The notes under the pieces were generated by a model that did no database searches, was not told where the DNA came from, and saw only the letters and a list, made by a program, of their open reading frames with translations. Shown piece after piece: positions 7,348 through 63,630 of a stretch of 64,000 nt of DNA. Positions within the stretch are counted from its first letter, which is position 1. The number at the start of each line of letters is the position of its first letter. A program made the translations under genes and the position numbers. This DNA comes from an uncultured Clostridia bacterium (GTDB taxonomy: Bacteria; Bacillota; Clostridia; TANB77; CAG-508): the NCBI GenBank assembly GCA_944390535.1, contig CALXQV010000043.1, positions 7,056 to 71,055 on the forward strand, given 5' to 3'.

Positions 7348-7526
7348 AAACATCCCACTTCTCCTATGTATATATATTATATTTTAAGCGGGTTTCGTGG
7401 GGACCGACACACTACATACTCTTATTAAATCAGTGACAGTCCCGTGGGAACTGATTTGATTAGAGTATGTAAAGTGTTGGGATAGCGAAAAATATAATAT
7501 ATATACATAGGAAAATTGGGATGTTT
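7348..7526. repeat. long-hairpin intergenic repeat, family B, copy 1
   Basis: The ~139-nt core (7368-7506) is near-identical to 57876-58014. It is flanked by copy-specific 20-nt inverted arms (7348-7367 / 7507-7526, 2 mismatches). Confidence 0.8.
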
Positions 7527-10661: not shown

Positions 10662-10799
10662 GAATTATACGCTCCTTTTGTTTATCTTTTTTATTTTTTA
10701 CTTTTCTTGTATATTCTATCAAAATTTATTTTTTTATTCAATAGATTTCTATGTTTCTACGCAGAAAATTCTTCATTTCAAAATTTATTTTTAAAAGAC

Positions 10800-10824
10800 A
10801 AAAAAGCACCACATTAGTGGCACT
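10800..10824 (-). terminator. intrinsic terminator after 10934-12163
   Basis: On the minus strand: AGTGCCAC-TAAT-GTGGTGCT followed by TTTTTT. Confidence 0.6.
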
Positions 10825-10933
10825 ATGGTACTTAGATTTTTTATTGCATATCTATCATTAATTGTTTTCTCTATTTACTCGCTTTTAAAATATATTTAAA
10901 TGAATTCTATTACTGCTTTCCCAAACTTCATTC

Positions 10934-12163
10934 CTACAAATATAAAATTGGGCGGAAAGAAATATAATTACCAGTAGAAGTATCGATAGTTTTATTATCA
11001 TGACGGTAGCTCGGGTTACCACCACTAAAGGCATAACAACCACCTCTAGTAGCATAAGGATAATAAGTACTACAAGTACTTTCTGTCACCCATTCTATAC
11101 AATTTCCTGCTATATCATATATATTTAACTGTATATCTCCTGATAATCCTGTTGTTCGTTTTGATGAACTAATTAATTTTCCATCTCGTCTCGAATAATT
11201 ACTTTCTCCATATTTCTGTATAAACAAGATTGCTGTATCCCATGCATAACTATTCATTAAGTCACTATTAATTTCTTCATACAAATCTTGACAGGCAGTT
11301 GCTGCATTTGGTTGATTAATCATCGTCCACGCGCTTTTATTATACTTACTTTCTGCTTTGCCACTGCTCTCTCTGCTTGCTTCAAATCTTGCGATATAAT
11401 ATCCTTCATTTTTCCTAACACTTTCTATAAATCCCTCTATGTCTTTTGCTATTGTATTAGCATATCTACTTTCAACATGTTCTTCTGGCGTTTCTTCTTT
11501 GAAAAATCCTGAATATTCTGTTGGTATCCCTGATGAGTCAAAATCATATCTTCCTAATAATATCTTTTTTTCTCCATTTATTCCTTTTACATCATCGATT
11601 GTTCCATCTTCTCCTAAAATCCCATCTACTGGTATCCATACATATTGGTTTCCACCCTTTGTATTATTTAAGTCATCTCCTTCTACATCTGATATAACTA
11701 ATCCTCCTGTTACAGTACTTCCTTCTACATGGTAAAATCCTTCTGGTATTCTTACTCCTTCTACTACTGTACCTAAGTTTTCTTCTATTGTTATACTTCC
11801 ATCACTATTTATTGTATATTCTCTCTTTGATTCAAATGTTACTGTTAAGGTTTCATCTCCATTATCTATTACTGTTGTATTGTATCCATTCATTTTTAAT
11901 TCTTCTTGTAACTCTGTAGCACTTGCTCCTTTTCCTTCATTATCCACCATCACTCCATTATATGCTATTTTGATTGCTTCTTTTTCTTCTTCTATCTGTG
12001 TTTTATCACTTGCTTGGCTAGCCTTTGTTAAAATCCCATTGTCTCCTGTTAATGTAGCAATTGTTACCCCTGCTAAAATTAACAACACAATCATTGTGAT
12101 AACCAATGCAATTAAAGTAATACCATTATTCCTTTTCTTTTCCTTATTTTTTAGTTTTTTCAT
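10934..12163 (-). CDS. exported protein with pilin-like N-terminal segment and FGE/SUMF1-type (C-type lectin fold) C-terminal domain
   Basis: 409 aa. N-terminus NGITLIALVITMIVLLILAGVTIATLTGDNGILTKAS. C-terminal motifs YIARFEAS, NIYDIAGNCIEWVTE, RGG and ISFRPILY resemble formylglycine-generating-enzyme family signatures. Paralog of 37589-39313. Confidence 0.8.
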   Translation of the reverse strand: MKKLKNKEKKRNNGITLIALVITMIVLLILAGVTIATLTGDNGILTKASQASDKTQIEEEKEAIKIAYNGVMVDNEGKGASATELQEELKMNGYNTTVIDNGDETLTVTFESKREYTINSDGSITIEENLGTVVEGVRIPEGFYHVEGSTVTGGLVISDVEGDDLNNTKGGNQYVWIPVDGILGEDGTIDDVKGINGEKKILLGRYDFDSSGIPTEYSGFFKEETPEEHVESRYANTIAKDIEGFIESVRKNEGYYIARFEASRESSGKAESKYNKSAWTMINQPNAATACQDLYEEINSDLMNSYAWDTAILFIQKYGESNYSRRDGKLISSSKRTTGLSGDIQLNIYDIAGNCIEWVTESTCSTYYPYATRGGCYAFSGGNPSYRHDNKTIDTSTGNYISFRPILYL

Positions 12164-12379: not shown

Positions 12380-12408
12380 ATTCTATTCGTTTTATTGAAT
12401 TAAGTCAA
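12380..12408 (-). promoter_or_regulatory. candidate fixed sigma-A promoter facing 10934-12163, outside the invertible segment
   Basis: Minus strand: TTGACT (12408-12403), 17-nt spacer, TAGAAT (12385-12380). The same hexamers and spacing occur at the paralogous locus. Confidence 0.4.
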
Positions 12409-12441
12409 TATATTGTCGTATTATATTTCTTATATTTTGCT

Positions 12442-12649
12442 TAGATTTCACTACTCTAAGAATTTATACATTCTTCAAAAACCTCTAAACTTCACGTTTT
12501 TCTTGAGTTATATGAATTAAAAAATCTTCTAATTTTCAAATTTTATTAATAGATTTTTACAGGAATTTTTTTGCATAATTTTATTGACTTTTATATATTT
12601 TATTGTTAGAATCGAATTATGAAAATGCTTCTTAGAGTAGTGAAATCTA
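12442..12649. promoter_or_regulatory. putative invertible DNA switch (inverton) bounded by 21-bp perfect inverted repeats
   Basis: TAGATTTCACTACTCTAAGAA (12442-12462) and its exact reverse complement (12629-12649) flank 166 bp that contain a strong promoter. The architecture is duplicated at 39497-39697. Confidence 0.65.
12584..12612 (+). promoter_or_regulatory. near-consensus extended -10 promoter inside the invertible segment, facing away from 10934-12163
   Basis: TTGACT (12584-12589), 17-nt spacer, TGtTAGAAT (12604-12612). Confidence 0.6.
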
Positions 12650-12738: not shown

Positions 12739-14010
12739 TTACATACCTGTTACTGGTAAAATTCTTTTACTCGTTACTTCTTTTTTATCTACTATTTTTT
12801 CAATTTCTGGTTTTTCTTCTTTATGATTGTTTACTGTCACTGTTATTTCTTCATTTAAGTTTATATCTATTTCAATTAATTCTTCATAAAGTTCATATCC
12901 ACCAATTGTTTTGGTTTCTTTTATATAATATTTACCTGGAATTATATTTTCTATTTCTATTTTTCCATTCTCATCTGTTTCTAAATTTGTATACATTACA
13001 TTTTTATTTTCATCTAATAGCTGAAATTCTACACCCTGTAATTTTTCTTCTGTTTCTTCATCTTCTTTTATTATGATTAATTTTGTTTTATTTTTATTAT
13101 AATAGTCTTTTATTTCTCCTGTTCCATCTTCATAAGTTGATCCAGTTAATGCATAATCTTGTAAATTACCATTTGGGGCTTTTCCATACAAAATTGGTTT
13201 TGTCTCTATCTTTGTTTCTATATGAATTTGAATCGTTTTATCTTCTATCATTTGTTTTATAGGAATTAATAATTTAAAAGTTTCATTTGCATGAAATTCT
13301 TGTTTTTCTTTATTGGTTTCATCTGTTATTTTAACACCTTCAATTTCTTGACCATTTTCATCTGTTACATATACGTTATAATTGTCTATATTTGTTTTAC
13401 TATTTACTTTATACGTTTTGGATACATATTGTGTTTCTAATGTATCTTGTTCCCAATATTCTTCTAATTTTTGAATATCTACTTTATTAGAAATCTGTAC
13501 TTCAGTAGAGCTATTCGCTGCATTTACAATTTGATACATGGCATTTAATGTTCTTTGTCCTGCTTCTCCAATTGGTGCATAATCACTTAATTGGTTTCCA
13601 TGAATATAGCTATAAATCGCATGTTTTGTTGCTGTAAATGCTTCTTTTTCATTAGCAACCTCTAATTTTCCTATAGATTTATATGGATACCCATTTGTTA
13701 CAATTTTCCAAAGCATAACATCTTGTATTGCTTTCTCAATAGAAACTGTATAATTACCTTCCTCTGCTCCAGGTTTTGTTTTATCTAGACAATACGCTGG
13801 ATATCGTTTTCCTTCATGTTCATATTCAATATAGGTAGTTTTTACCACTATTCCTTTATAGGTAAGTAAGTTTCCACAATCTCCTACTGCATATACATTT
13901 ACTGTATTTAAATTAGTTGCTATAACTGAATTTGTAAAGTTTAAGAAGTTCAATGTCATAATAGCAAATATGACACATATGATTTTTAGTCCCTTTTTTA
14001 TTTTATTCAA
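12739..14010 (-). CDS. surface adhesin/pilin-like protein: thioester (TQXA-type) domain plus Cna-B/SpaA-type domain, LPVTG at C-terminus
   Basis: 423 aa. Signal peptide, then the AYCLDKTKPGA, NGYP and FTATKHAIY motifs (TED-like), the Cna-B-like block LQGVEFQLLDENKNV...GKYYIKETKTIGGYEL, and an ending of ILPVTGM-stop. Confidence 0.75.
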   Translation of the reverse strand: MNKIKKGLKIICVIFAIMTLNFLNFTNSVIATNLNTVNVYAVGDCGNLLTYKGIVVKTTYIEYEHEGKRYPAYCLDKTKPGAEEGNYTVSIEKAIQDVMLWKIVTNGYPYKSIGKLEVANEKEAFTATKHAIYSYIHGNQLSDYAPIGEAGQRTLNAMYQIVNAANSSTEVQISNKVDIQKLEEYWEQDTLETQYVSKTYKVNSKTNIDNYNVYVTDENGQEIEGVKITDETNKEKQEFHANETFKLLIPIKQMIEDKTIQIHIETKIETKPILYGKAPNGNLQDYALTGSTYEDGTGEIKDYYNKNKTKLIIIKEDEETEEKLQGVEFQLLDENKNVMYTNLETDENGKIEIENIIPGKYYIKETKTIGGYELYEELIEIDINLNEEITVTVNNHKEEKPEIEKIVDKKEVTSKRILPVTGM

Positions 14011-14029: not shown

Positions 14030-14566
14030 CTATTTTTCTTTTTCTACGCCTTGTATACATCTTCTGTACTCTGGTTCATTTTCTACACAAGTAATTAGTG
14101 TAATTGTATTTTCTTCTGTTGGCTCTAAAAGACTCCAATCTGTATTTTTTATTATCTCATGTTTTGTTACTATATAGATTTTTTCTATATTTCCATAGGT
14201 ATATGTAATTTCATCTCCTTCTTGTAATTCTTTTAATCGCCCAAAATAGTTATTTTTATATCCTCTATTATGTGCTGCTAAACATATATTTCCTAAATTT
14301 TTAGAAGATTCTTCAAAATGTCCAACATAATCTTCTAAGATTTTTTGGCTAGTTCCTTCTTGTATAGGTGCCTTTAAAGCTATTTTATCTATTTGAATAT
14401 ACCAGTTATCTAACGTATTTACTTCATCTAGATTGCTAGTATTATCTTCTTCTAAATTTTTTGAATCAATTGTTTGATTTTGAATTAAATTTTCTTGTGT
14501 TGTAAAATCGACTTTAAATTCTATTGTTTGTAATCTTAAAATGTCACTATGAAATAAACTATTCAT
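14030..14566 (-). CDS. sortase (cysteine transpeptidase); true start probably upstream at a non-ATG codon
   Basis: 178 aa from the first ATG. Catalytic His (LAAHN) and Cys (TLITC), with a conserved Arg near the C-terminus. The membrane anchor is encoded in frame upstream (see finding). Confidence 0.85.
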   Translation of the reverse strand: MNSLFHSDILRLQTIEFKVDFTTQENLIQNQTIDSKNLEEDNTSNLDEVNTLDNWYIQIDKIALKAPIQEGTSQKILEDYVGHFEESSKNLGNICLAAHNRGYKNNYFGRLKELQEGDEITYTYGNIEKIYIVTKHEIIKNTDWSLLEPTEENTITLITCVENEPEYRRCIQGVEKEK

Positions 14567-31890: not shown

Positions 31891-32646
31891 ATGGAAAATA
31901 ATAAAAACTCTCAAAATAATGAAAAAGATATAAGATATTATGCAAAAGTACATTCAATAGAGACCTTTGGTGCAGTTGATGGTCCAGGAATTCGCTTTGT
32001 ATTATTTCTTCAAGGATGTCATTTACAATGTAAATATTGCCACAATCGTGACACTTGGGATATGAAAGAAGGAACATATCAATCTGTTGATGATATTTAT
32101 AAAATGATTTTAAAATACAAAAATTACATTACCCCAAATGGTGGTGTTACTGTTTCTGGTGGAGAACCTTTATTACAAGTCAAATTTTTAATAGAATTAT
32201 TTACAAAGTTAAAAAAGAAAAAAATTCACACTTGTATTGATACCTCAGGAATGGTAGCATTAACAGAAGATGTCAAGCAGTTACTAGGTCTAACTGATTT
32301 AGTTTTATTAGATATTAAACATATTGATAGTGGAAAGTGTAAAAATTTAGTAGGATTTGATAACAAATTAGAATTAGAATTTGCAAAATACTTAAGTGAC
32401 AATCATATACCAATATGGATTAGACAAGTATTAGTTCCTGGCTATACAGATGATGAAAAAGATTTACGAACATTAAAAAAATTTATTTCTACTTTAGATA
32501 CAGTTCAAAAAATAGAAATTTTGCCATATCACAGTATTGGTAAATATAAATGGACAAAATTAGGATTGAAATATGATTTAGAAACCATTACAGATGCTAC
32601 GAGTGATGATGTAAAACGTGCAAAAGCAATTTTAGGAATTAGCTAA
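31891..32646 (+). CDS. pflA: pyruvate formate-lyase activating enzyme (radical SAM)
   Basis: 251 aa. Contains the radical-SAM CxxxCxxC cluster motif (CHLQCKYCHN) and the GGVTVSGGEP motif. Lies immediately downstream of pflB. Confidence 0.95.
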   Translation: MENNKNSQNNEKDIRYYAKVHSIETFGAVDGPGIRFVLFLQGCHLQCKYCHNRDTWDMKEGTYQSVDDIYKMILKYKNYITPNGGVTVSGGEPLLQVKFLIELFTKLKKKKIHTCIDTSGMVALTEDVKQLLGLTDLVLLDIKHIDSGKCKNLVGFDNKLELEFAKYLSDNHIPIWIRQVLVPGYTDDEKDLRTLKKFISTLDTVQKIEILPYHSIGKYKWTKLGLKYDLETITDATSDDVKRAKAILGIS

Positions 32647-32755
32647 AAGGGAATTTGGGGACGGACTCATTTTTCCCTTTTTTATATTCTATATTTTTTG
32701 AATTTTTACTGATATCAAAAAAGGGAAAAATGAGTCCGTCCCCAAATTCCCTTTT
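32645..32755. terminator. perfect 39-bp-arm palindrome between convergent genes (back-to-back terminators)
   Basis: AAAAGGGAATTTGGGGACGGACTCATTTTTCCCTTTTTT (32645-32683) and its exact reverse complement (32717-32755). Each arm alone folds as AAAGGGA..TCCCTTT followed by a T run. Confidence 0.75.
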
Positions 32756-32757
32756 TG

Positions 32758-33693
32758 TTACATTCCTAACAATTTTAATTCAACATTTTCCATTTTGTAT
32801 TTTCCTTGAACTAGCTTAAATTCTACTAACGTGTCTTCTAATGTTTCTTTATTTTGTCTTAAATCTGTTGTAAAATATAACTTGATTTGTGAAATTTCTA
32901 GATTATTTTTTACAATTTCTTTAAATGTCTCTGCCATATGTTTTTCATCTTCACATATTAAAATTAATTGTGGCATTGCGACAAACCCTGAGTCTCCTAG
33001 CACATAGTTTTCATAGAATTCTTTATATAGTCTCATTCTTTCTACAAGTTTTTTCTCCCAATCTGGCTCTCTTCTGATAACTTCAAAAACAAATTGAATT
33101 GATTTTTTATTCTTTGTAAGTTTTACTGCCCCACCACTTGCTTTAAATAGCTTTCCTGAAATTTTGGCCGTGATGGCTGGTTTTACGATATAACTATCAA
33201 ATGCTTTTACTTTTCTTAAATATGCAATTAATGTTTGGTTTCCAGCTAGTCTCTTTTTTATCATTGGTACGGGTTTTGTATTATCAGATGGTTGCCACTT
33301 ACAATCAATTTCTTTAGAGTTTAATAAATATTTTCCCATCTTTTCTAAACAATAAATTCTATAGATTCCTTTACCTTCATCAGAAGTAAAGTAATATCTT
33401 GTTAATATTTTAGATTTTACTAGTTGGTCTAGTTTGTTATTTAATTTATCTTGTGACTTAGGGTCAATTCCTTTGATTTCTAGCATTTGATACAATTGTC
33501 TTGATGTGATAAATTCAAATTCATTCACTAAGTCTAAAATTGCAAAATGGATTTCATTGATATGTCCTATATTAATCTTATGTACGATTTGGTTCATTGA
33601 CACATATCCATCTTTTCCGTCGAAAGTTTTAATTTCACCTTCTCTAATAGCAAATGGAGATACTTGTGCCTTGATTTCATTATCTTTTACCAT
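32758..33693 (-). CDS. hypothetical protein, possible winged-helix N-terminal region (weak resemblance to replication-relaxation family)
   Basis: Start set at the ATG preceded by AGGAGGGA (MVKDNEIK). The motif AILDLVNEFEFITSRQLYQML resembles the wHTH of PF13814-type proteins. This is a low-confidence product call. Confidence 0.55.
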   Translation of the reverse strand: MVKDNEIKAQVSPFAIREGEIKTFDGKDGYVSMNQIVHKINIGHINEIHFAILDLVNEFEFITSRQLYQMLEIKGIDPKSQDKLNNKLDQLVKSKILTRYYFTSDEGKGIYRIYCLEKMGKYLLNSKEIDCKWQPSDNTKPVPMIKKRLAGNQTLIAYLRKVKAFDSYIVKPAITAKISGKLFKASGGAVKLTKNKKSIQFVFEVIRREPDWEKKLVERMRLYKEFYENYVLGDSGFVAMPQLILICEDEKHMAETFKEIVKNNLEISQIKLYFTTDLRQNKETLEDTLVEFKLVQGKYKMENVELKLLGM

Positions 33694-33748
33694 TTTTATT
33701 TTCCCTCCTATAAATTTAGAATTATCTATATTTTTTATAATAAACCAC

Positions 33749-34546
33749 TTATTGTTCAATTAACAATTTTACTTTTTTCTTTTCTTTATCTATTTTTTTG
33801 ATATATACATCTACTTTTTGCCCATATTGATATCCTTCTTCATATTCTGCCATTCCCACTAAGTTTGGTGTTAATTCGATAAAAATACCATTTTTATTTT
33901 TTTCTGTTTCTCGAATAATTCCTCGTACTTTCATTCCAGAAGTGAAATTTTTAATGTTTTCTTCCCATGTTCCTAAGGTCTCTTTATATGACAAACTAAC
34001 TTTTCCTGTATATCTATCTATACATTTTACCACAACATTTACTTTTTGTCCAATTTTTAGCCTTTCATAGGGTGTTTTGATTCTCGCTACAGATAAATCT
34101 TCTATATGTGCTAGTCCAACAACACCGCCTCCAATTTCAATAAATGCTCCATATGGTCTAATATTTTTTACAATTCCTGTAACATTTTCACCAACTTGCA
34201 TATCTTTTTTTATATATTGCAGAGTTTCTTGTTGAACACTTTTTCTAGATAGAAATACTGTATTAGCATTTTCAATGTTTTCTATTTTAAATTGTACATA
34301 TTTATGCACTTTTCCTGTACATAATCTTTCATCTGGCAAGCCATCTTGACTATTTTCTACTTCACTTCTTGGGATAATTCCCTCTATGTTATTCCCTAAT
34401 TCAATATGTAAGTTATATTTTTCATCACAGCTTTTTACAATTCCTTGAATGGTTTTATTTTCTTGTTGATATTTTTGTATCTTTTGTAAGTTTAGATTTT
34501 CTATCTCTTCATTCCAACCTTCTGGCACAAATCGAAATGTATTCAT
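33749..34546 (-). CDS. S1 RNA-binding domain protein (three S1-like repeats)
   Basis: 265 aa. Central canonical S1 motif GENVTGIVKNIRPYGAFIEIGGGVVGLAHIEDL. Confidence 0.8.
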   Translation of the reverse strand: MNTFRFVPEGWNEEIENLNLQKIQKYQQENKTIQGIVKSCDEKYNLHIELGNNIEGIIPRSEVENSQDGLPDERLCTGKVHKYVQFKIENIENANTVFLSRKSVQQETLQYIKKDMQVGENVTGIVKNIRPYGAFIEIGGGVVGLAHIEDLSVARIKTPYERLKIGQKVNVVVKCIDRYTGKVSLSYKETLGTWEENIKNFTSGMKVRGIIRETEKNKNGIFIELTPNLVGMAEYEEGYQYGQKVDVYIKKIDKEKKKVKLLIEQ

Positions 34547-37588: not shown

Positions 37589-39313
37589 TTATCTTATTGT
37601 GAGACATATACGAAATCCGTTGCCACTAGGACTACCATTATATCCTGCAGTAGTAGCAAAGGTAAATAAACCTACATTCGTATTTTTATAATATCCTCCT
37701 CGTTGAAAAAACGGAAATGCATCTCCATCTTTAATACCTACAAATCGAGATAATACTGAATACCATGAACCAGTTTCACTTTCTGATGTTGATGTCTCTG
37801 TTGTTGCATCTCCAAATATTCTATTTATATTTACATTATAATTATCTGTTGAACTATTTGAAGTCGCCATCTGATACACTGTTGCGTATTTTGTGCTTTC
37901 TTTTTTATTATTTGTTTTATTATCTATTGAGGCAAATGAATTCCCATATGTCTGAGTAGAATCTGCAACATAGCTTGCTATATATTCATATGCCCCTCCT
38001 ACCATATCATATATTCCATATTCATTTCCTGTTGTGCTTTGTAATTTGTTTTTTGATGGTGTTGCTCCACTTGCTCCTCCAGTATAATAACCACTACTAC
38101 TATTTTTTGTTATTGCTGTTCCATTTCTTCCATATTTACTTTCTGTTAAATATGCTACTACTCCCCATTCACTATTTTTCATCAGATGGCTCTCTTTATC
38201 TCTATCATAGTCATATCCTTTGGTATACATTGTTCCTATTGTTGTACTCCTATAACTGGTTACTCCTGGTATTGATTTTATTGTTGTACCACTTTGGCTC
38301 ACCTCATATTTAGCTACCCATATTCCTTCTAATTTACTATCCCATTCTCCTTGTGAAAATCCTGTTAAAGTACCATTTTCAAATACTGGATGTACTCTTA
38401 ATTTATTTTTTCCTACTGCTACACCTGTTACAGGTTCTCCTAAATCACTTGGTGTTTTTCCTTCTATATTTACAATTCCTCTTGCATCACTATATCCTAC
38501 AATTCCTTCTGTTTTTGTGTTATCTGCTCTATATGCTTCTTTATGTTCTGGCGTATCAAAATATATAATTCTATATGCATATCTTGGTATCCATACCCAA
38601 TAACTACCATCTTTTGTTTTTGCATTTGCCCAATGGCTTGTTCCTCCTGATGCTGTTGTTCCAGCTTGTACTGTATATTGATACCAGTTATTTTCATCAA
38701 ATTCTGCTTCTCCTTCTTCTATTTCTGTTCCATCTTCTTCCCAATATACTTTTTTCATATCACTTGTCATTTTTGGCTCATTTGGTGTTGTTGCTATATC
38801 ATAACTTGTACCAGTTAAAAATTCTATCTCTATTAGCCCATTTGCTCTTGTAAAGGCAGGTTCTTTTGATACTTCTGGGGTTTTTTCTGGCTCTCTTATT
38901 GTATATTCTGTTACATTTCCCATTTTGTCTACAAAATAACTTCTCCCATTATCATAATTTTCTGTTATGGTTACAATGTATCCTTCCGTTCCCTCTTCAT
39001 TTGTTCCTGGCTCTACTATATATTTTCCATCAGTAAAATATTCTCCTAATTCTTTTTCCAAATTTTCTTGAATAACTTCATCTCCATCTGCTTTTGCTAG
39101 CGCTCCTAGCGCAGATAGCTCCACTTTTTCCTTTTCATCTGCTAGTTCTGTTTTCTCACTTGCTTCACTCGCTTTTGCTAATATTCCATTTTCCCCTGTT
39201 AGTGTTGCAATTGTTACGCCTGCTAATATAAGTAACACAATAATAGTTATGACTAATGCAATTAACGTAATCCCATTATCTATTTTACTTTTTTGTCTCT
39301 TTATTTTACTCAA
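37589..39313 (-). CDS. exported protein with pilin-like N-terminal segment and FGE/SUMF1-type C-terminal domain (paralog of 10934-12163)
   Basis: 574 aa, TTG start with a GGGGGA SD. N-terminus NGITLIALVITIIVLLILAGVTIATLTGENGILAKAS. C-terminal motifs WVAKYEVS, GIYDMVGGAYEYI, RGG and NGFRICL. Confidence 0.8.
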   Translation of the reverse strand: MSKIKRQKSKIDNGITLIALVITIIVLLILAGVTIATLTGENGILAKASEASEKTELADEKEKVELSALGALAKADGDEVIQENLEKELGEYFTDGKYIVEPGTNEEGTEGYIVTITENYDNGRSYFVDKMGNVTEYTIREPEKTPEVSKEPAFTRANGLIEIEFLTGTSYDIATTPNEPKMTSDMKKVYWEEDGTEIEEGEAEFDENNWYQYTVQAGTTASGGTSHWANAKTKDGSYWVWIPRYAYRIIYFDTPEHKEAYRADNTKTEGIVGYSDARGIVNIEGKTPSDLGEPVTGVAVGKNKLRVHPVFENGTLTGFSQGEWDSKLEGIWVAKYEVSQSGTTIKSIPGVTSYRSTTIGTMYTKGYDYDRDKESHLMKNSEWGVVAYLTESKYGRNGTAITKNSSSGYYTGGASGATPSKNKLQSTTGNEYGIYDMVGGAYEYIASYVADSTQTYGNSFASIDNKTNNKKESTKYATVYQMATSNSSTDNYNVNINRIFGDATTETSTSESETGSWYSVLSRFVGIKDGDAFPFFQRGGYYKNTNVGLFTFATTAGYNGSPSGNGFRICLTIR

Positions 39314-39431: not shown

Positions 39432-39460
39432 ATTCTACTTACTTTGTATAAATAAGTCAA
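39432..39460 (-). promoter_or_regulatory. candidate fixed sigma-A promoter facing 37589-39313, outside the invertible segment
   Basis: Minus strand: TTGACT (39460-39455), 17-nt spacer, TAGAAT (39437-39432). Confidence 0.4.
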
Positions 39461-39496
39461 TATATTGTCGTATTATATTTCCGCTTTTTTACTTGA

Positions 39497-39697
39497 ATTT
39501 CAATACTCTAGGAACATACAGTACTTTTCAAAACATTGGTATTTTAAGCTTATAAGGTTTTTACTATTTTAAAAACGCTTTTAATTCTTAAATTTTATAT
39601 ATGTTTTTTTCTTAATTTTTTTCGTATCTTTTTATTGACTTTATTAATCTATATTGTTAAAATTTAGATGTAAAAAATGTTCCTAGAGTATTGAAAT
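39497..39697. promoter_or_regulatory. putative invertible DNA switch (inverton) bounded by 21-bp perfect inverted repeats
   Basis: ATTTCAATACTCTAGGAACAT (39497-39517) and its exact reverse complement (39677-39697) flank 159 bp that contain a strong promoter. Confidence 0.65.
39635..39663 (+). promoter_or_regulatory. near-consensus extended -10 promoter inside the invertible segment, facing away from 37589-39313
   Basis: TTGACT (39635-39640), 17-nt spacer, TGtTAAAAT (39655-39663). Confidence 0.6.
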
Positions 39698-50578: not shown

Positions 50579-51682
50579 ATGAGTATAAAATCTGACTTAA
50601 AAAAAGATGGAATTGAAGTTACTCAAAAATTAGATACTTTAAAGATTAATTCTATTGCAAAAAATATTGCTTCTAAATTATGCCAAACCTTTCCTTATTA
50701 TGGTTTAAACGAAAATGAGCTATTTATAAAATTATCAAGACTTGATATGTATAAAGCAAAAATGCCTGAAGGAATGGCTGAAGCAAATTACTATTATAAA
50801 AATACTTCTATTTATTTTAATGAACATATTCCTGAAGAAGATATGGAAGAATTTGCGATTCACGAATGTATTCATTATCTTCAAGAGGTAAAAGATAAAA
50901 GAAATTATCTGTTAAAAATGGGATTATGTGATTATACAGAGTTTAAAATTTATGGATTAGGATTAAATGAAGCAGCTGTTCAATTAATGTCATCAAAAGT
51001 GATTGGTATTCCAAAAGATTACGTAAAATATTTTGGAATTAGTTTTGAAACAACAAGCCCTTCGTATTATCCTTTAGAATGTTGTTTAGTAAATCAATTA
51101 GCTTTTATAACAGGTGAAGATATTCTATTTAAAAGTACCCTAAATAGTGATGATGATTTTAAGATAAAATTTTCCAAATTAACTTCACAAAAAGCTTTTA
51201 TAGCAATTCAAAATGCAATTGATGATATTTTATTTGCAGAAGAAGATATTATTAAATTAAATAACAAAATTGCTTTAATTGATGATAGAAATAAAAAAAT
51301 AGATGATATGGTAAAAAGGATTGATGAATTAAAAGAAAAAATAAAAATAACCTTTTTAAGAACACAAAATTTAATCATTTCTAGCTATTTTGATAAGGCC
51401 TTTTTAAATATCACAAATTTGGAGGAATTAGAAACATACAGAAAAAAATTGTATGATATAAAATCTTATTTAGGTTTTGCAGAAGGCTATACATTTTTCA
51501 ATGATTATTATGTTGAAAAAATGTCCCAGTTAGAACATAAATATAACATATTAGAAAATGGTGGTATTGAAACAGCAATCAATATAAGAACAAAAAATGA
51601 AAATAAAATTATGACTTTATTTAAAACACTTAAGAGATTGCTTTTAGGTAAATCTTTTGAAAGAAAAAATAACGATATATAA
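50579..51682 (+). CDS. hypothetical protein with HExxH metallopeptidase-like motif and coiled-coil C-terminal half
   Basis: 367 aa. FAIHECIHYLQE (HExxH). SD AAGGAG precedes the start. Confidence 0.65.
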   Translation: MSIKSDLKKDGIEVTQKLDTLKINSIAKNIASKLCQTFPYYGLNENELFIKLSRLDMYKAKMPEGMAEANYYYKNTSIYFNEHIPEEDMEEFAIHECIHYLQEVKDKRNYLLKMGLCDYTEFKIYGLGLNEAAVQLMSSKVIGIPKDYVKYFGISFETTSPSYYPLECCLVNQLAFITGEDILFKSTLNSDDDFKIKFSKLTSQKAFIAIQNAIDDILFAEEDIIKLNNKIALIDDRNKKIDDMVKRIDELKEKIKITFLRTQNLIISSYFDKAFLNITNLEELETYRKKLYDIKSYLGFAEGYTFFNDYYVEKMSQLEHKYNILENGGIETAINIRTKNENKIMTLFKTLKRLLLGKSFERKNNDI

Positions 51683-57848: not shown

Positions 57849-58041
57849 TTTCAGTTCAGGGGGGATTTTGCGGAGGTATATATATTATATTTTAAGCGGG
57901 TTTCGGGGAGACCTACACGCTACATACTCTTATTCAATCAGTGACAGTCCCGTGGGAGCTGATTGAATTAGAGTATGTAAAGTGTTGGGATAGTGAAAAA
58001 TATAATATATATACCTCCGCAAAATCCCCCCTGAACTGAAA
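57849..58041. repeat. long-hairpin intergenic repeat, family B, copy 2
   Basis: The core 57876-58014 matches 7368-7506. The outer 27-nt arms (57849-57875 / 58015-58041) are perfectly complementary and unrelated to those of copy 1. Confidence 0.85.
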
Positions 58042-62523: not shown

Positions 62524-63630
62524 CTAATTCCTTTCAAATTTTGTTCTATATTCGCTTTTATTTACATATTGCATAATCTGTCCTTGCATGCCAATTACCA
62601 AATCTTTGTTACCATCTAATGTATTAAATTTTAATATCGTATAGTCTGCATATAGATATTCTGTACTTCCTCCATCACTATAATATCCTATTTCACAAAA
62701 TCCATATTTTTCATCTTGTTTTATCTGGTCCAGCATATCTTGAACAGTTATAGCAGCTTGTTTTAAAGCATCTTCTAGAGAATATCCCATATCCTCTTCT
62801 ATGATAATCATGACATCTCCTGCAATGGTATAGATACCAAAATCTGTATTATCAAATTGGTTCATTTCTGCCACTCTTTTCACACCCATATCTTTTCTAC
62901 CTTCATATATTAACTCAAAACGCTTTTCATATGCTGAACTTTCTAAAGTATATTCACAAATGATAGGTAGCTCTGTCACTTCTATCAAATATGGTTCCAT
63001 AGTAACTTGTACCATATTGTCTTTTGTTTTTCGTTTCATTGTCCAATGTACACAATCATATCTTCCTGTTTCTTCTCCATTTACTGTAATTTTATAATAT
63101 CCATAAAATGCTTGGTATTCTTCTGATGTTGCATCGCTACTTGGCACTTTTATATTTACTGTATTTTCACCTTCAAAAACTGTTTCTTTTACATCTTTTC
63201 CCTGTACAAATTCTACTTGTATATGATTTTCTTTTCCCTCTTCTATGACTAAAATTGATAAACTAGCTGTATGACGATTATTCACTTTTTCTATAAATTC
63301 ATCTATCTGATTCTCATTTTGTATATTTCCATTTTCAATCCTAACGGTCTCTTGGTTTTCTTCTTGTAATTGAATACATTGTACCGTTGCTATTATCTGT
63401 CTACCAAAAAGCTTCATACACATTTCTTCAATCATGTCTGTATTAGAAACATAATATACTTCTACTGTATACCCTAATCCTTGATATGTTCCATTACCTA
63501 AATCATTTGCAAATATTGGTAATTTTCCTTGTTGTACTTGATGATACTCTGCATAGACAATACCTCCATACACGATGACACATACAGCAAAAATGATACC
63601 AATCCCTATCATTATTTTCTTTTTCATCAT
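62524..63630 (-). CDS. hypothetical exported/membrane-anchored protein
   Basis: 368 aa with an N-terminal hydrophobic segment MMKKKIMIGIGIIFAVCVIVYGG. No family recognised. Confidence 0.65.
   Translation of the reverse strand: MMKKKIMIGIGIIFAVCVIVYGGIVYAEYHQVQQGKLPIFANDLGNGTYQGLGYTVEVYYVSNTDMIEEMCMKLFGRQIIATVQCIQLQEENQETVRIENGNIQNENQIDEFIEKVNNRHTASLSILVIEEGKENHIQVEFVQGKDVKETVFEGENTVNIKVPSSDATSEEYQAFYGYYKITVNGEETGRYDCVHWTMKRKTKDNMVQVTMEPYLIEVTELPIICEYTLESSAYEKRFELIYEGRKDMGVKRVAEMNQFDNTDFGIYTIAGDVMIIIEEDMGYSLEDALKQAAITVQDMLDQIKQDEKYGFCEIGYYSDGGSTEYLYADYTILKFNTLDGNKDLVIGMQGQIMQYVNKSEYRTKFERN

Follow-up and report, generated by a model that had tools for sequence, protein, structure and literature searches.

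Two genes in the window analysed here (the whole stretch of DNA, 64,000 nucleotides) probably encode exported ligand-binding proteins of the type diversified by diversity-generating retroelements (DGRs), orphaned from such an element and placed behind invertible promoters. The two proteins, of 574 and 409 aa, are members of a very large family in gut Clostridia. Each begins with a short basic leader and a hydrophobic segment that is the in-register counterpart of the type IV pilin alpha1-N helix, with Ala in place of Glu at +5, and continues through a small predicted alpha/beta head into a C-terminal C-type-lectin (CLec) domain of the formylglycine-generating enzyme (FGE) type. The last ~40-55 residues of this domain are the counterpart of the variable region (VR) in DGR variable proteins. 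The window species seems to have lost, or never to have possessed, the cassette of Avd, reverse transcriptase (RT) and template repeat (TR). A putatively invertible segment of ~200 bp with a strong sigma-70-type promoter precedes each gene; a recombinase encoded elsewhere would presumably invert these segments, and inversion would turn transcription on or raise it. As predicted from profiles and models, both genes encode surface-binding proteins and not enzymes.

The near-identity of the first ~45 residues of the two proteins, pointed out in the sequence-only reading, holds on closer comparison: only 3 of the 35 positions differ in GITLIALVIT[I/M]IVLLILAGVTIATLTG[E/D]NGIL[A/T]KAS, and BLASTP finds 59% identity over aa 14-89 (E 1e-22). 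The C-terminal halves show weak pairwise similarity (BLASTP, E 0.14). Profile-profile comparison with hhalign gives a probability of 99.95% and an E of 2.3e-38 over 346 columns, and the homology runs from the N-terminus into the FGE-like domain, as far as its first motifs, pairing YIARFEAS with WVAKYE, NSYAWD with KNSEWG and IYDMAGNCxEW with IYDxxGGAxEY. Since each protein falls into a subfamily of its own, their earlier description as paralogous is valid at the superfamily level only. The coordinates of both genes, their parts and their upstream elements are collected in Table 1.

Table 1 Features of the two genes and of their upstream regions (positions in the window; 29-mer, a 29-nt element found at both loci; IRs, inverted repeats).
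Feature	Position	Strand	Description
574-aa gene	37589-39313	-	ORF with TTG start; pilin-like N-terminus, head domain, beta-rich linker and FGE/C-type-lectin-like domain
N-terminal class-III-signal-like module, 574-aa protein	39179-39313	-	aa 1-45
FGE/C-type-lectin-like domain, 574-aa protein	37592-38641	-	about aa 225-574
VR-equivalent region, 574-aa protein	37592-37756	-	about aa 520-574; matches the VRs of orthologs L004 and L169
Fixed element between 574 inverton and gene	39432-39481	-	29-mer 39453-39481 over promoter-like TTGACT-17-TAGAAT 39432-39460
Inverton upstream of 574 gene	39497-39697	.	21-nt perfect IRs 39497-39517 and 39677-39697; 159-bp core
Promoter in 574 inverton	39635-39663	+	TTGACT-17-TAAAAT with TG extension, 10/12 consensus; faces away from the gene
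409-aa gene	10934-12163	-	ORF with ATG start; same N-terminal module and head, shorter FGE/C-type-lectin-like domain
FGE/C-type-lectin-like domain, 409-aa protein	10937-11650	-	about aa 172-409
VR-equivalent region, 409-aa protein	10937-11053	-	about aa 371-409
Fixed element downstream of 409 inverton	12380-12429	-	29-mer 12401-12429 over promoter-like TTGACT-17-TAGAAT 12380-12408
Inverton upstream of 409 gene	12442-12649	.	21-nt perfect IRs 12442-12462 and 12629-12649; 166-bp core
Promoter in 409 inverton	12584-12612	+	TTGACT-17-TAGAAT with TG extension; faces away from the gene

The family is large and apparently unnamed and undescribed. A search returned 20,648 cluster representatives at 50% identity (E<=1e-3), and two nucleotide scans yielded more than 570 confirmed matches each. 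Its members are mainly limited to uncultured, low-GC gut Clostridia, where homologs occur as several paralogs per small genome, scattered round the chromosome and not within a pil operon; one circular MAG of this clade (OZ007016.1, 1.57 Mb) has at least 3 paralogs. Viral contigs contain only 5 weak matches, so a phage origin of the family is rejected. Neither Pfam nor NCBIfam has a model specific for the family; no NCBIfam model reached threshold on the window proteins, and no Rfam family was found in the window. Our literature searches turned up no work on these organisms that connects DGRs to invertons or to type IV pilins.

The N-terminus and the question of a pilin

Both leaders are short and basic, end in Gly and are followed by ~20 hydrophobic residues (MSKIKRQKSKIDN-G-ITLIALVITIIVLLILAG and MKKLKNKEKKRNN-G-ITLIALVITMIVLLILAG). 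In the 574-aa protein, the first 45 residues consist of a basic leader of 13 aa, Gly14 and then ITLIALVITIIVLLILAG...LTGENGIL, with Ala at +5. When the N-terminal profile was searched against the PDB, pilins were the sole matches, in the register KG[F/I]TLI[E/A]L, and the profile alignments place the leaders in register with those of Geopilin, MshA, PilA and PilE1. The PilE1 match covers aa 13-96 (E 0.003), and the PHROG 'pilin' family matches the 409-aa protein over aa 2-124 (E 0.0013). The pilin-like nature that the sequence-only reading had seen in the N-terminus is therefore borne out, as is the substitution of Ala for the canonical Glu: the +5 residue is A in 159 of 171 homologs, S in 6, T in 4 and V in 2, and Glu in none.

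The AF2 model of the 574-aa protein has a pLDDT of 68 overall and of 80-93 across aa 50-210. Within the head, two helices (H43-74 and H82-92) are predicted, followed by four beta-strands, at a pLDDT of 80-93. Full-length Foldseek matches to the minor pilin FimU stayed below significance.

It is possible that the N-terminus is a mere uncleaved signal-anchor, in which case both would be type II membrane proteins with the lectin domain outside, as is the case for most DGR targets of cellular origin, and with no type IV filament. Several observations are in keeping with this explanation, including the absence of Glu5 in all 171 homologs, a predicted helix break at TGENG past the hydrophobic segment, where pilin alpha1 is continuous, and the presence of several paralogs per small genome, which is unusual among minor pilins. 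The N_methyl model (PF07963) scores 17.9 and 10.9 bits on the window proteins, under the Pfam cut-off of 21.2, and gives sub-threshold matches for 24/38 and 9/38 of their relatives. A crude motif test for genes of a prepilin peptidase, a pilus ATPase or platform, or a major pilin was negative in the window and beside all of ~170 homolog loci; the searches covered the window and about 1.6 Mb of related loci, and those for the GspE-type Walker A and PilD GxGDxK motifs returned nothing relevant. The sequence-only reading had proposed looking for just such genes, and in the window and at these loci that search came back empty. However, GITLIALVITIIVLLILAG is near-invariant over many species in proteins that are otherwise less than 40% identical, the pilin motif of Gly(-1) and +1 to +4 is matched in register, and the head region matches pilin profiles past the hydrophobic segment. 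Because the constraint on GITLIALVITIIVLLILAG far exceeds the need of a generic anchor, we disfavour the signal-anchor explanation, while granting it an appreciable chance of being correct.

Under the pilin interpretation, a prepilin peptidase would cut after Gly14, and a minor pilin without Glu5 at the filament tip would show its lectin domain outward; we judge the chances of this to be about even. Alternatively, an uncleaved N-terminal helix may keep the protein anchored in the membrane for display. Subunits without Glu5 are found at the tips of type 4 filaments (PMC10191384), modular pilins are an established concept (PMC8179133), and a 'GspG-type pilin' domain appears as a rare VR-holding domain in one survey (PMC11661182). 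By analogy, the absence of Glu5 from the window proteins would be compatible, among the roles of pilins, only with that of a tip-capping subunit. Since the window holds no pilus machinery, assembly into a pilus is still something that we infer. If the pilin interpretation is true, the string Gly-Ile-Thr-Leu-Ile-Ala could be used as a search rule for the tip adhesins of organisms not yet in culture.

Diversity-generating retroelements in relatives and their absence from the window

The 574/409 family was shown to be a family of DGR targets, as judged from the patterns of sequence mismatch in its relatives. Orthologs 72% and 50% identical to the window protein lie in the same mfd-X-DUF362 slot and are followed by Avd, reverse transcriptase and TR, and the mismatches between TR and VR are adenine-specific in these orthologs. 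At the P0086 loci VR and TR are 80% identical with A-to-N as the main mismatch; at P0003/L169, TR adenines account for 30 of the 33 mismatches, and they hold 86-100% of the mismatches in six further cis TR/VR pairs. An adenine-patterned TR is present in nine relatives (L004, L169, L025, L035, L031, L024, L008, L056 and L118), the last of which belongs to the 409 family and carries a VR/TR pair with A-specific changes beside truncated Avd and RT genes. Among 80 species-representative loci, about 16 have an Avd and/or RT match adjoining the homolog. The sequence-only reading had remarked that this fold serves as a binding scaffold in DGR variable proteins, and the remark turned out to apply to true orthologs, which are targets of DGRs with Avd, RT and adenine-mutated TR/VR.

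The window itself contains no match to RVT_1 or bAvd (Pfam), and neither blastn nor an adenine-tolerant scan found a TR in its 64 kb. Since Avd, RT and TR are missing, the two window genes can be regarded as orphaned DGR-type variable proteins, and their ligand-binding surface would therefore be frozen in the window species. In L004, the sequence after the DGR cassette can be aligned with the intergenic DNA on the downstream side of the 574 gene. Separately, a putative TR relic at 10794-10905, downstream of the 409 gene (63% over 114 nt), was rejected because it has no overlap with the VR-equivalent region and its local alignment score is at the level of shuffled sequences.

Both genes might nevertheless be active DGR targets that are rewritten in trans, so that they would be hypervariable as well as phase-variable. 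A trans target does exist in a related MAG, where the TR of L025 and the VR of L043, from one bin, are 91% identical and 11 of the 14 mismatches fall on TR adenines; the L043 gene, the target in question, has an inverton too. Moreover, when the 409 gene of the window is compared with that of L001, 5 of the 12 nucleotide differences fall within the last 120 nt. Against this explanation stand the lack of a TR in 64 kb even by the adenine-tolerant scan and the recovery of identical proteins, VR-equivalent region included, from several independent samples (at least two for the 574-aa protein, four for the 409-aa protein). In addition, differences in the 574 gene between strains of the species sit outside the VR-equivalent region, the VR of the window differs from the TRs of orthologs at many non-adenine positions, and an ortholog of the 574 gene at 84% identity likewise lacks a DGR, and has no inverton either. 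We consider rewriting in trans to be unlikely.

Across related species, the syntenic mfd-X-DUF362 locus carries a DGR, an inverton, or neither. Such a locus amounts to a natural experiment on the conditions that favour hypervariation over phase variation in a bacterium.

Invertons upstream of both genes

The consensus of the inverted repeats occurs at exactly 4 sites in the window, against 0.01 expected by chance, and these sites bound one segment upstream of each gene. We call the orientation of both invertons in the window OFF. A metagenome contig that encodes an identical 409-aa protein (L179) agrees with the ON model at 331 of 332 positions and gives no matches to the OFF model, and the -10 hexamer of its inverton promoter is turned toward the gene; the flipped junction was seen in this one contig, which ends inside the inverton. 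Because L179 bears the flipped junction, inversion occurs in nature, and since the promoter segment of at least one gene thus inverts, expression probably varies from cell to cell. Of the phase variation suggested earlier for both genes, the part concerning the 409 locus is thereby upheld, whereas the 574 inverton has a single orientation in all five assemblies of this species, with no flip seen. Apart from one assembly, the orientation of the invertons is uniform in all. Samples with this species are represented by the ENA assemblies ERZ28614620 (SAMEA6814450), ERZ28614405, ERZ24773265, ERZ24773488 and ERZ15848002.

Homologous invertons precede about 13 further homolog genes in other species. 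Between the core of the 574 inverton and the invertons preceding homologs elsewhere, identity is 60-74%, the position of the internal promoter is conserved among them, and the homologous core lies in either orientation among the tandem paralogs of L038 and also in L158. Not every family member has an inverton: among 83 upstream regions in the metagenome set for the 409 family, a single one carries it. No site-specific recombinase was found in the window by Pfam, or near the inverton loci by tblastn with Hin and XerD as queries, and a motif search for tyrosine recombinases returned nothing relevant.

At both loci, inverton and gene are separated by a fixed promoter-like site with a score of 10/12 and by a fixed 29-mer that is identical at the 574 and 409 loci and is also found in L068. 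Because this fixed site separates each inverton from its gene, a strict ON/OFF switch is not guaranteed. One could go further and propose that the inverted repeats arose by chance or are structural in nature (a terminator, for example, or the remnant of a mobile element), and that the fixed downstream promoter drives constitutive expression. The location of the fixed site and the single orientation in all assemblies but one are what this proposal would predict, but the flipped 409 junction in L179, the excess of the repeat consensus over chance, and the homologous cores in other species, with the same promoter position and both orientations, make it very unlikely.

We tentatively suggest that the members of the family may be modular type IV pilins without Glu5 that bear a CLec module at the tip, and that lineages may alternate between hypermutation by a DGR and invertible-promoter switching of fixed paralogs; we regard this as a possibility rather than a probability. 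If the members are such tip pilins, it is conceivable, though on balance doubtful, that the same adhesin gene and slot are used by both strategies, and that some genomes have both on one gene. The family would then join three routes of surface variation, namely modular pilins, DGR hypermutation and promoter inversion.

The C-terminal domain and known systems

Profile searches and a structural model place the C-terminal domain in the FGE/C-type-lectin fold, as a non-enzymatic member. TaqVP (5vf4), a DGR variable protein, is the sole significant match in the PDB, by sequence profile as well as by fold: the A2 profile matches it with an E of 2.8e-4, and the AF2 model of the 574-aa protein with a Foldseek E of 2e-5 and a probability of 1.0. 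This model has low AF2 confidence in its C-terminal third, and that of the 409-aa protein, with a pLDDT of 56 that falls under 50 in the lectin domain, was left out of the fold search. The matches to viral structures in Foldseek were all low-TM and tail-fibre-like, and uninformative. The Pfam FGE model PF03781 scores 16.9 bits on the 574-aa protein (E 0.0053, cut-off 23.3) and does not match the 409-aa protein; within the families it matches 18 of 38 proteins related to the 409-aa protein (best E 7e-6) and 9 of 38 in the 574 family (best E 3e-5). The FGE/C-type-lectin domain proposed in the sequence-only reading is confirmed by these family-level matches and by TaqVP, and structure prediction, which it had recommended, bears this out. 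Of the HMM searches that it had also recommended, those with PF03781 and PF07963 on the window proteins themselves ended below threshold or without a match, and the one with PF03781 succeeded at the level of the families.

Within the 574 family, column entropy peaks at the VR-equivalent region (about aa 520-574). That the domain is an enzyme tethered outside the cell, whether formylglycine-generating, a related oxidase or sulfatase-maturing, is extremely improbable: the similarity to PF03781 and that of the A3 profile to SUMF2 (1y4j, E 0.24) are weak, while the best match in both structure and sequence is a non-enzymatic DGR variable protein, neither window protein has on inspection a CxxxxC pair after the RGG motif, where we take the catalytic Cys pair of FGE to sit, and the segment after RGG is the most variable one and is mutagenized by DGRs in orthologs, which an active site would not tolerate.

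TaqVP of Thermus aquaticus (5vf4) shares with the window proteins the FGE-type CLec fold and a C-terminal VR, or its equivalent, after the RGG motif. TvpA of Treponema denticola is another DGR variable protein with an FGE-type CLec fold. Unlike TaqVP, the window genes come without Avd, RT and TR, and between samples no change is seen in their VR-equivalent regions; their proteins have a pilin-like N-terminus instead of a lipoprotein or Sec signal, and their promoter is invertible.

Invertons are known to control surface structures, including the capsule and fimbrial promoters of Bacteroides and the cwpV and flagellar switches of C. difficile. Surveys of invertons have been published (PMC11892184 and PMC11602134). 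The window resembles these classic invertons in its short perfect inverted repeats, a promoter core of ~160 bp, a recombinase that is not adjacent, a surface protein downstream and the occurrence of both orientations. It differs from them in having an extra fixed promoter-like element and the 29-mer between switch and gene, and here the switch is attached to a gene family that is a target of DGRs.

Among modular pilins, PilB and PilC of S. sanguinis, with a vWA and a lectin module, respectively, follow the layout of leader ending in Gly, alpha1-N-like segment, head and binding module (PMC8179133) that is predicted for the window proteins. The absence of Glu5, a hallmark of the tip-capping subunit (PMC10191384) and of tip pilins such as GspK/PulK, is common to the window proteins. 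Compared with these modular and tip pilins, Glu5 is missing from the window family as a whole, its N_methyl matches are sub-threshold, a helix break is predicted, and its paralogs are scattered, with no linked peptidase or assembly genes and outside any pil operon.

In Bacteroides, DGRs diversify the tip adhesins of type V pili through a CLec variable region (bioRxiv 10.1101/2024.11.15.621889); invertible promoters, Firmicutes and type IV pili are not mentioned in that work. If the window proteins are indeed pilins with a CLec module at the tip, they would represent a Gram-positive type IV counterpart of these DGR-diversified type V tips, from which they differ in phylum, pilus type and signal.

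Two homologous proteins with a lectin-like domain

Both open reading frames proposed in the sequence-only reading, here called the 574 and 409 genes after the lengths of their products, were confirmed, and the window contains no further ORF with an N-terminus of this type. In BLASTP, the two proteins match at 59% identity over residues 14-89 (E 1e-22), bearing out the shared N-terminus, and the remainder has weak pairwise similarity (E 0.14). We then compared family alignments made from database relatives (A2, the 574 family; A3, the 409 family). The two profiles match with a probability of 99.95% (E 2.3e-38, 346 columns), co-aligning VWIP, YIARFEAS/WVAKYE, NSYAWD/KNSEWG and IYDMAGNCxEW/IYDxxGGAxEY, including the motifs singled out earlier as hallmarks of formylglycine-generating enzymes (FGE). 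The proteins are therefore homologs, with a relationship that spans the N-terminus and most of the FGE-like domain. They belong to separate subfamilies, so the description "paralogous" is apt at the superfamily level alone.

Features of the window and of related loci (unprefixed coordinates are those of the window)
Feature	Coordinates	Strand	Remarks
574 gene	37589-39313	-	574 aa; TTG start, preceded by GGGGG ribosome-binding site
409 gene	10934-12163	-	409 aa
Thioester-domain/SpaA-fold adhesin gene	12739-14010	-	with sortase gene, directly upstream of 409 gene
Sortase gene	14030-14566	-	upstream of 409 gene
29-mer, 574 locus	39453-39481		
29-mer, 409 locus	12401-12429		
Palindromic element, two copies	7362-7512; 57849-58041		same orientation
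Inverted repeat	32645-32755		39-nt perfect arms, 33-nt loop; between convergent genes
ORF	32758-33759	-	
ORF	50579-51682	+	
ORF	62524-63630	-	
Direct repeat	L004:11703-11775; L004:14035-14107		73 nt, 88% identity
Template repeat	L025:1963-2122		
Variable region	L043:7406-7565		
Decaying cassette	L009:8417-9204		RT split
Decaying cassette	L118:7056-7588		truncated Avd of 80 aa and RT of 103 aa, TR still recognisable alongside

The Pfam FGE-sulfatase model (PF03781) scores the 574-aa protein below threshold (E 0.0053, 16.9 bits; cut-off 23.3) and does not match the 409-aa protein. At family level the assignment was upheld, with matches for 18/38 in the 409 family (best 7e-6) and 9/38 in the 574 family (best 3e-5). 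The top PDB match of the A2 profile (E 2.8e-4) is 5vf4, which is TaqVP, the variable protein of a diversity-generating retroelement (DGR) of Thermus aquaticus. The same entry is the sole significant Foldseek match (E 2e-5, probability 1.0) of the AlphaFold2 model of the 574-aa protein (pLDDT 68, last third low), and structure prediction thus agrees with the FGE/C-type-lectin fold proposed earlier. Past the RGG motif, both window proteins lack a CxxxxC cysteine pair like the catalytic pair of FGE, and the stretch after RGG varies more than any other in the family (column entropy 2.1-2.2 bits versus 0.4-1.9 elsewhere). It follows that the C-terminal domain is a scaffold for binding, as had been suggested, and no enzyme. 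In some long relatives, among them P0241 (4340 aa), a single giant protein contains as many as 11 stretches that match this lectin-like domain.

A pilin-like N-terminus

The proteins start with a short, basic leader whose last residue is Gly (Gly14), and the residues that follow, ITLIALVITIIVLLILAG, are near-invariant in ~170 otherwise highly diverged homologs. The N-terminal family profiles match type IV pilins only in the PDB (Geopilin, MshA, PilA and PilE1; E 0.003-0.2), in register with KG[F/I]TLI[E/A]L, in keeping with the resemblance to a class III signal first noted by eye. Residues 2-124 of the 409-aa protein match a PHROG "pilin" family, and AlphaFold2 predicts with high confidence a head made of a helix and a four-stranded sheet. 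The N_methyl model (PF07963), one of the checks suggested for this claim, stayed below the Pfam cut-off on the window proteins. The reported lack of Glu at position +5 extends to the homologs, which have A/S/T/V there and Glu in none.

The partner of Glu5 in type 4 filaments is the N-terminal amine of the next subunit up, and the subunit capping the tip complex lacks Glu5 (PMC10191384); modular pilins with grafted adhesive modules are established (PMC8179133). With these precedents, a Glu5-less modular tip pilin would be a coherent reading, and pilus-tip display is plausible. Nearly as likely, the N-terminus is an uncleaved signal-anchor, the usual arrangement among cellular DGR targets (PMC8144416); motif searches of the window and related loci for a prepilin peptidase, an assembly ATPase and a major pilin found none, and AlphaFold2 breaks the helix of the N-terminal segment at TGENG. 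The proteins are lectin-fold binders with an export-type, pilin-like N-terminus.

DGR ancestry and probable loss

The 574 gene is flanked by mfd and a DUF362 ferredoxin gene. In related species the same slot holds orthologs (P0086, 50% identical; P0003, 72% identical) followed by bAvd and RVT_1 genes. At one related locus, L004, the terminal 148 nt of the gene recur 285 nt downstream at 80% identity, with mismatches chiefly A-to-G/T/C. At another, L169, adenines of the template repeat (TR) account for 30/33 mismatches with the variable region (VR), and in 6 further cis TR/VR pairs they hold 86-100%. A tblastn survey with the reverse transcriptase (RT) and Avd sequences from the P0086 and P0003 loci found Avd and/or RT matches adjoining the homolog at ~16/80 species-representative loci, without exception in gut MAGs of uncultured Clostridia (human, rabbit and chicken). 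The 409 family shares this history: in L118, a VR/TR pair with 79% identity and A-specific changes adjoins truncated Avd and RT genes, and similar relics lie at 2 other loci. The orthologs and their adenine-specific mismatches thus give substance to the earlier remark on DGR variable proteins. Overall, the original observation is real, and its interpretation is supported and strengthened.

Throughout the 64-kb window, no RT, Avd or TR was found, and the L004 DNA past the DGR cassette aligns with the intergenic stretch that lies downstream of the 574 gene. We conclude that both window genes encode orphaned DGR-type variable proteins, descendants of DGR targets. Identical copies of the 574-aa protein came from at least two samples, and those of the 409-aa protein from four. 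Between strains, the 574 gene differs outside the VR-equivalent region; in the 409 gene 5/12 strain differences fall within the last 120 nt, which suggests selection on the binding face and not DGR-scale rewriting. That a DGR elsewhere in the genome acts on these genes in trans is improbable; its precedent is a pair in a related MAG, the TR of L025 and the VR of L043.

These two loci, both from Lapin-018 bin73, match at 91% identity with 11/14 mismatches at TR adenines. The L043 paralog is unlinked to the L025 DGR and is also preceded by an inverton with 29-nt inverted repeats (IRs); DGR diversification and an inverton are therefore compatible in one gene. In L004, the ortholog's TR-Avd-RT cassette sits between the two copies of a direct repeat, and recombination between these could delete the DGR precisely; no copy of the repeat remains in the window. 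Decaying DGRs are present at L009, L118, L112 and L130, and DGR loss therefore recurs in the family.

Invertons and relation to known systems

Upstream of each gene, 21-nt perfect IRs enclose a core of 159 or 166 bp; the IR consensus occurs in the window at these 4 sites only (0.01 expected by chance), and the upstream regions of the two genes share 76% identity. In each region the top promoter match falls within the core, close to one end, has a TG extension and is directed away from the gene (OFF). In other species ~13 further homologs are preceded by related IR pairs (arms 17-29 nt, cores 114-166 nt), many with a promoter at the equivalent position, and the tandem paralogs of L038 have the homologous core in both orientations.

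A contig encoding the identical 409-aa protein, L179, terminates inside the inverton. Its upstream bases agree with a flipped core at 331 of 332 positions and fail to match the orientation seen in the window. The 33 bases that precede the proximal IR correspond, in reverse complement, to the distal end of the core as it stands in the window, and they turn the TAGAAT -10 hexamer toward the 409 gene. Inversion at the 409 locus therefore occurs in nature. The promoter segment of the 574 gene is homologous to this inverting segment and is OFF in 5/5 assemblies. Phase variation, suggested earlier for both genes, thus has direct support at the 409 locus, with no flip seen at the other. Searches in the window and near related invertons (Pfam, motifs, tblastn with Hin/XerD queries) found no recombinase, so it presumably acts in trans.

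Both loci contain an identical 29-mer, GAAATATAATACGACAATATATTGACTTA, which is placed 33-36 nt past the proximal IR and overlaps a fixed promoter-like site (TTGACT-17-TAGAAT); the 29-mer recurs upstream of an L068 homolog. Possible roles are a regulator site, a recombinase-accessory site or a second promoter. Given the fixed site beside the inverton, the switch may adjust the level of expression and not act as a strict gate. An 84%-identical ortholog in the same slot has neither inverton nor DGR, and the slot thus has three states: inverton, DGR or neither.

Other elements were seen in the window. The copies of the palindromic element (G+C-rich, ~140 nt; local alignment score 121 over ~140 aligned nt) have 24-45-nt perfect inverted repeats (GTATATATATTATATTTT...) bounding a 103-nt core with a long hairpin. 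They contain no sigma-70-like promoter, match no Rfam family, and are candidates for a MITE/REP-like repeat or structured RNA. The 39-nt inverted repeat resembles a bidirectional terminator. The adhesin ends in LPVTGM-stop, a sorting motif without a hydrophobic tail, also in other assemblies. One of the three ORFs has a Replic_Relax-like domain (E 5.5e-6); the other two (~367 aa) match no Pfam family, and one of these has an N-terminal transmembrane segment.

At E<=1e-3 the family counts 20,648 cluster representatives, 474 of which reach 1e-30; its sources give it no name and no NCBIfam model matches it. A literature search for the union of DGR variable proteins, modular pilins and invertons found no paper. 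Neither the family nor its use of DGR and inverton in alternation at a single adhesin gene appears to have been described, and the components are of known kinds: modular pilins, invertible promoters and DGR variable proteins of the CLec/FGE fold. A GspG-type pilin domain is among the rare VR-holding domains of one DGR survey (PMC11661182).
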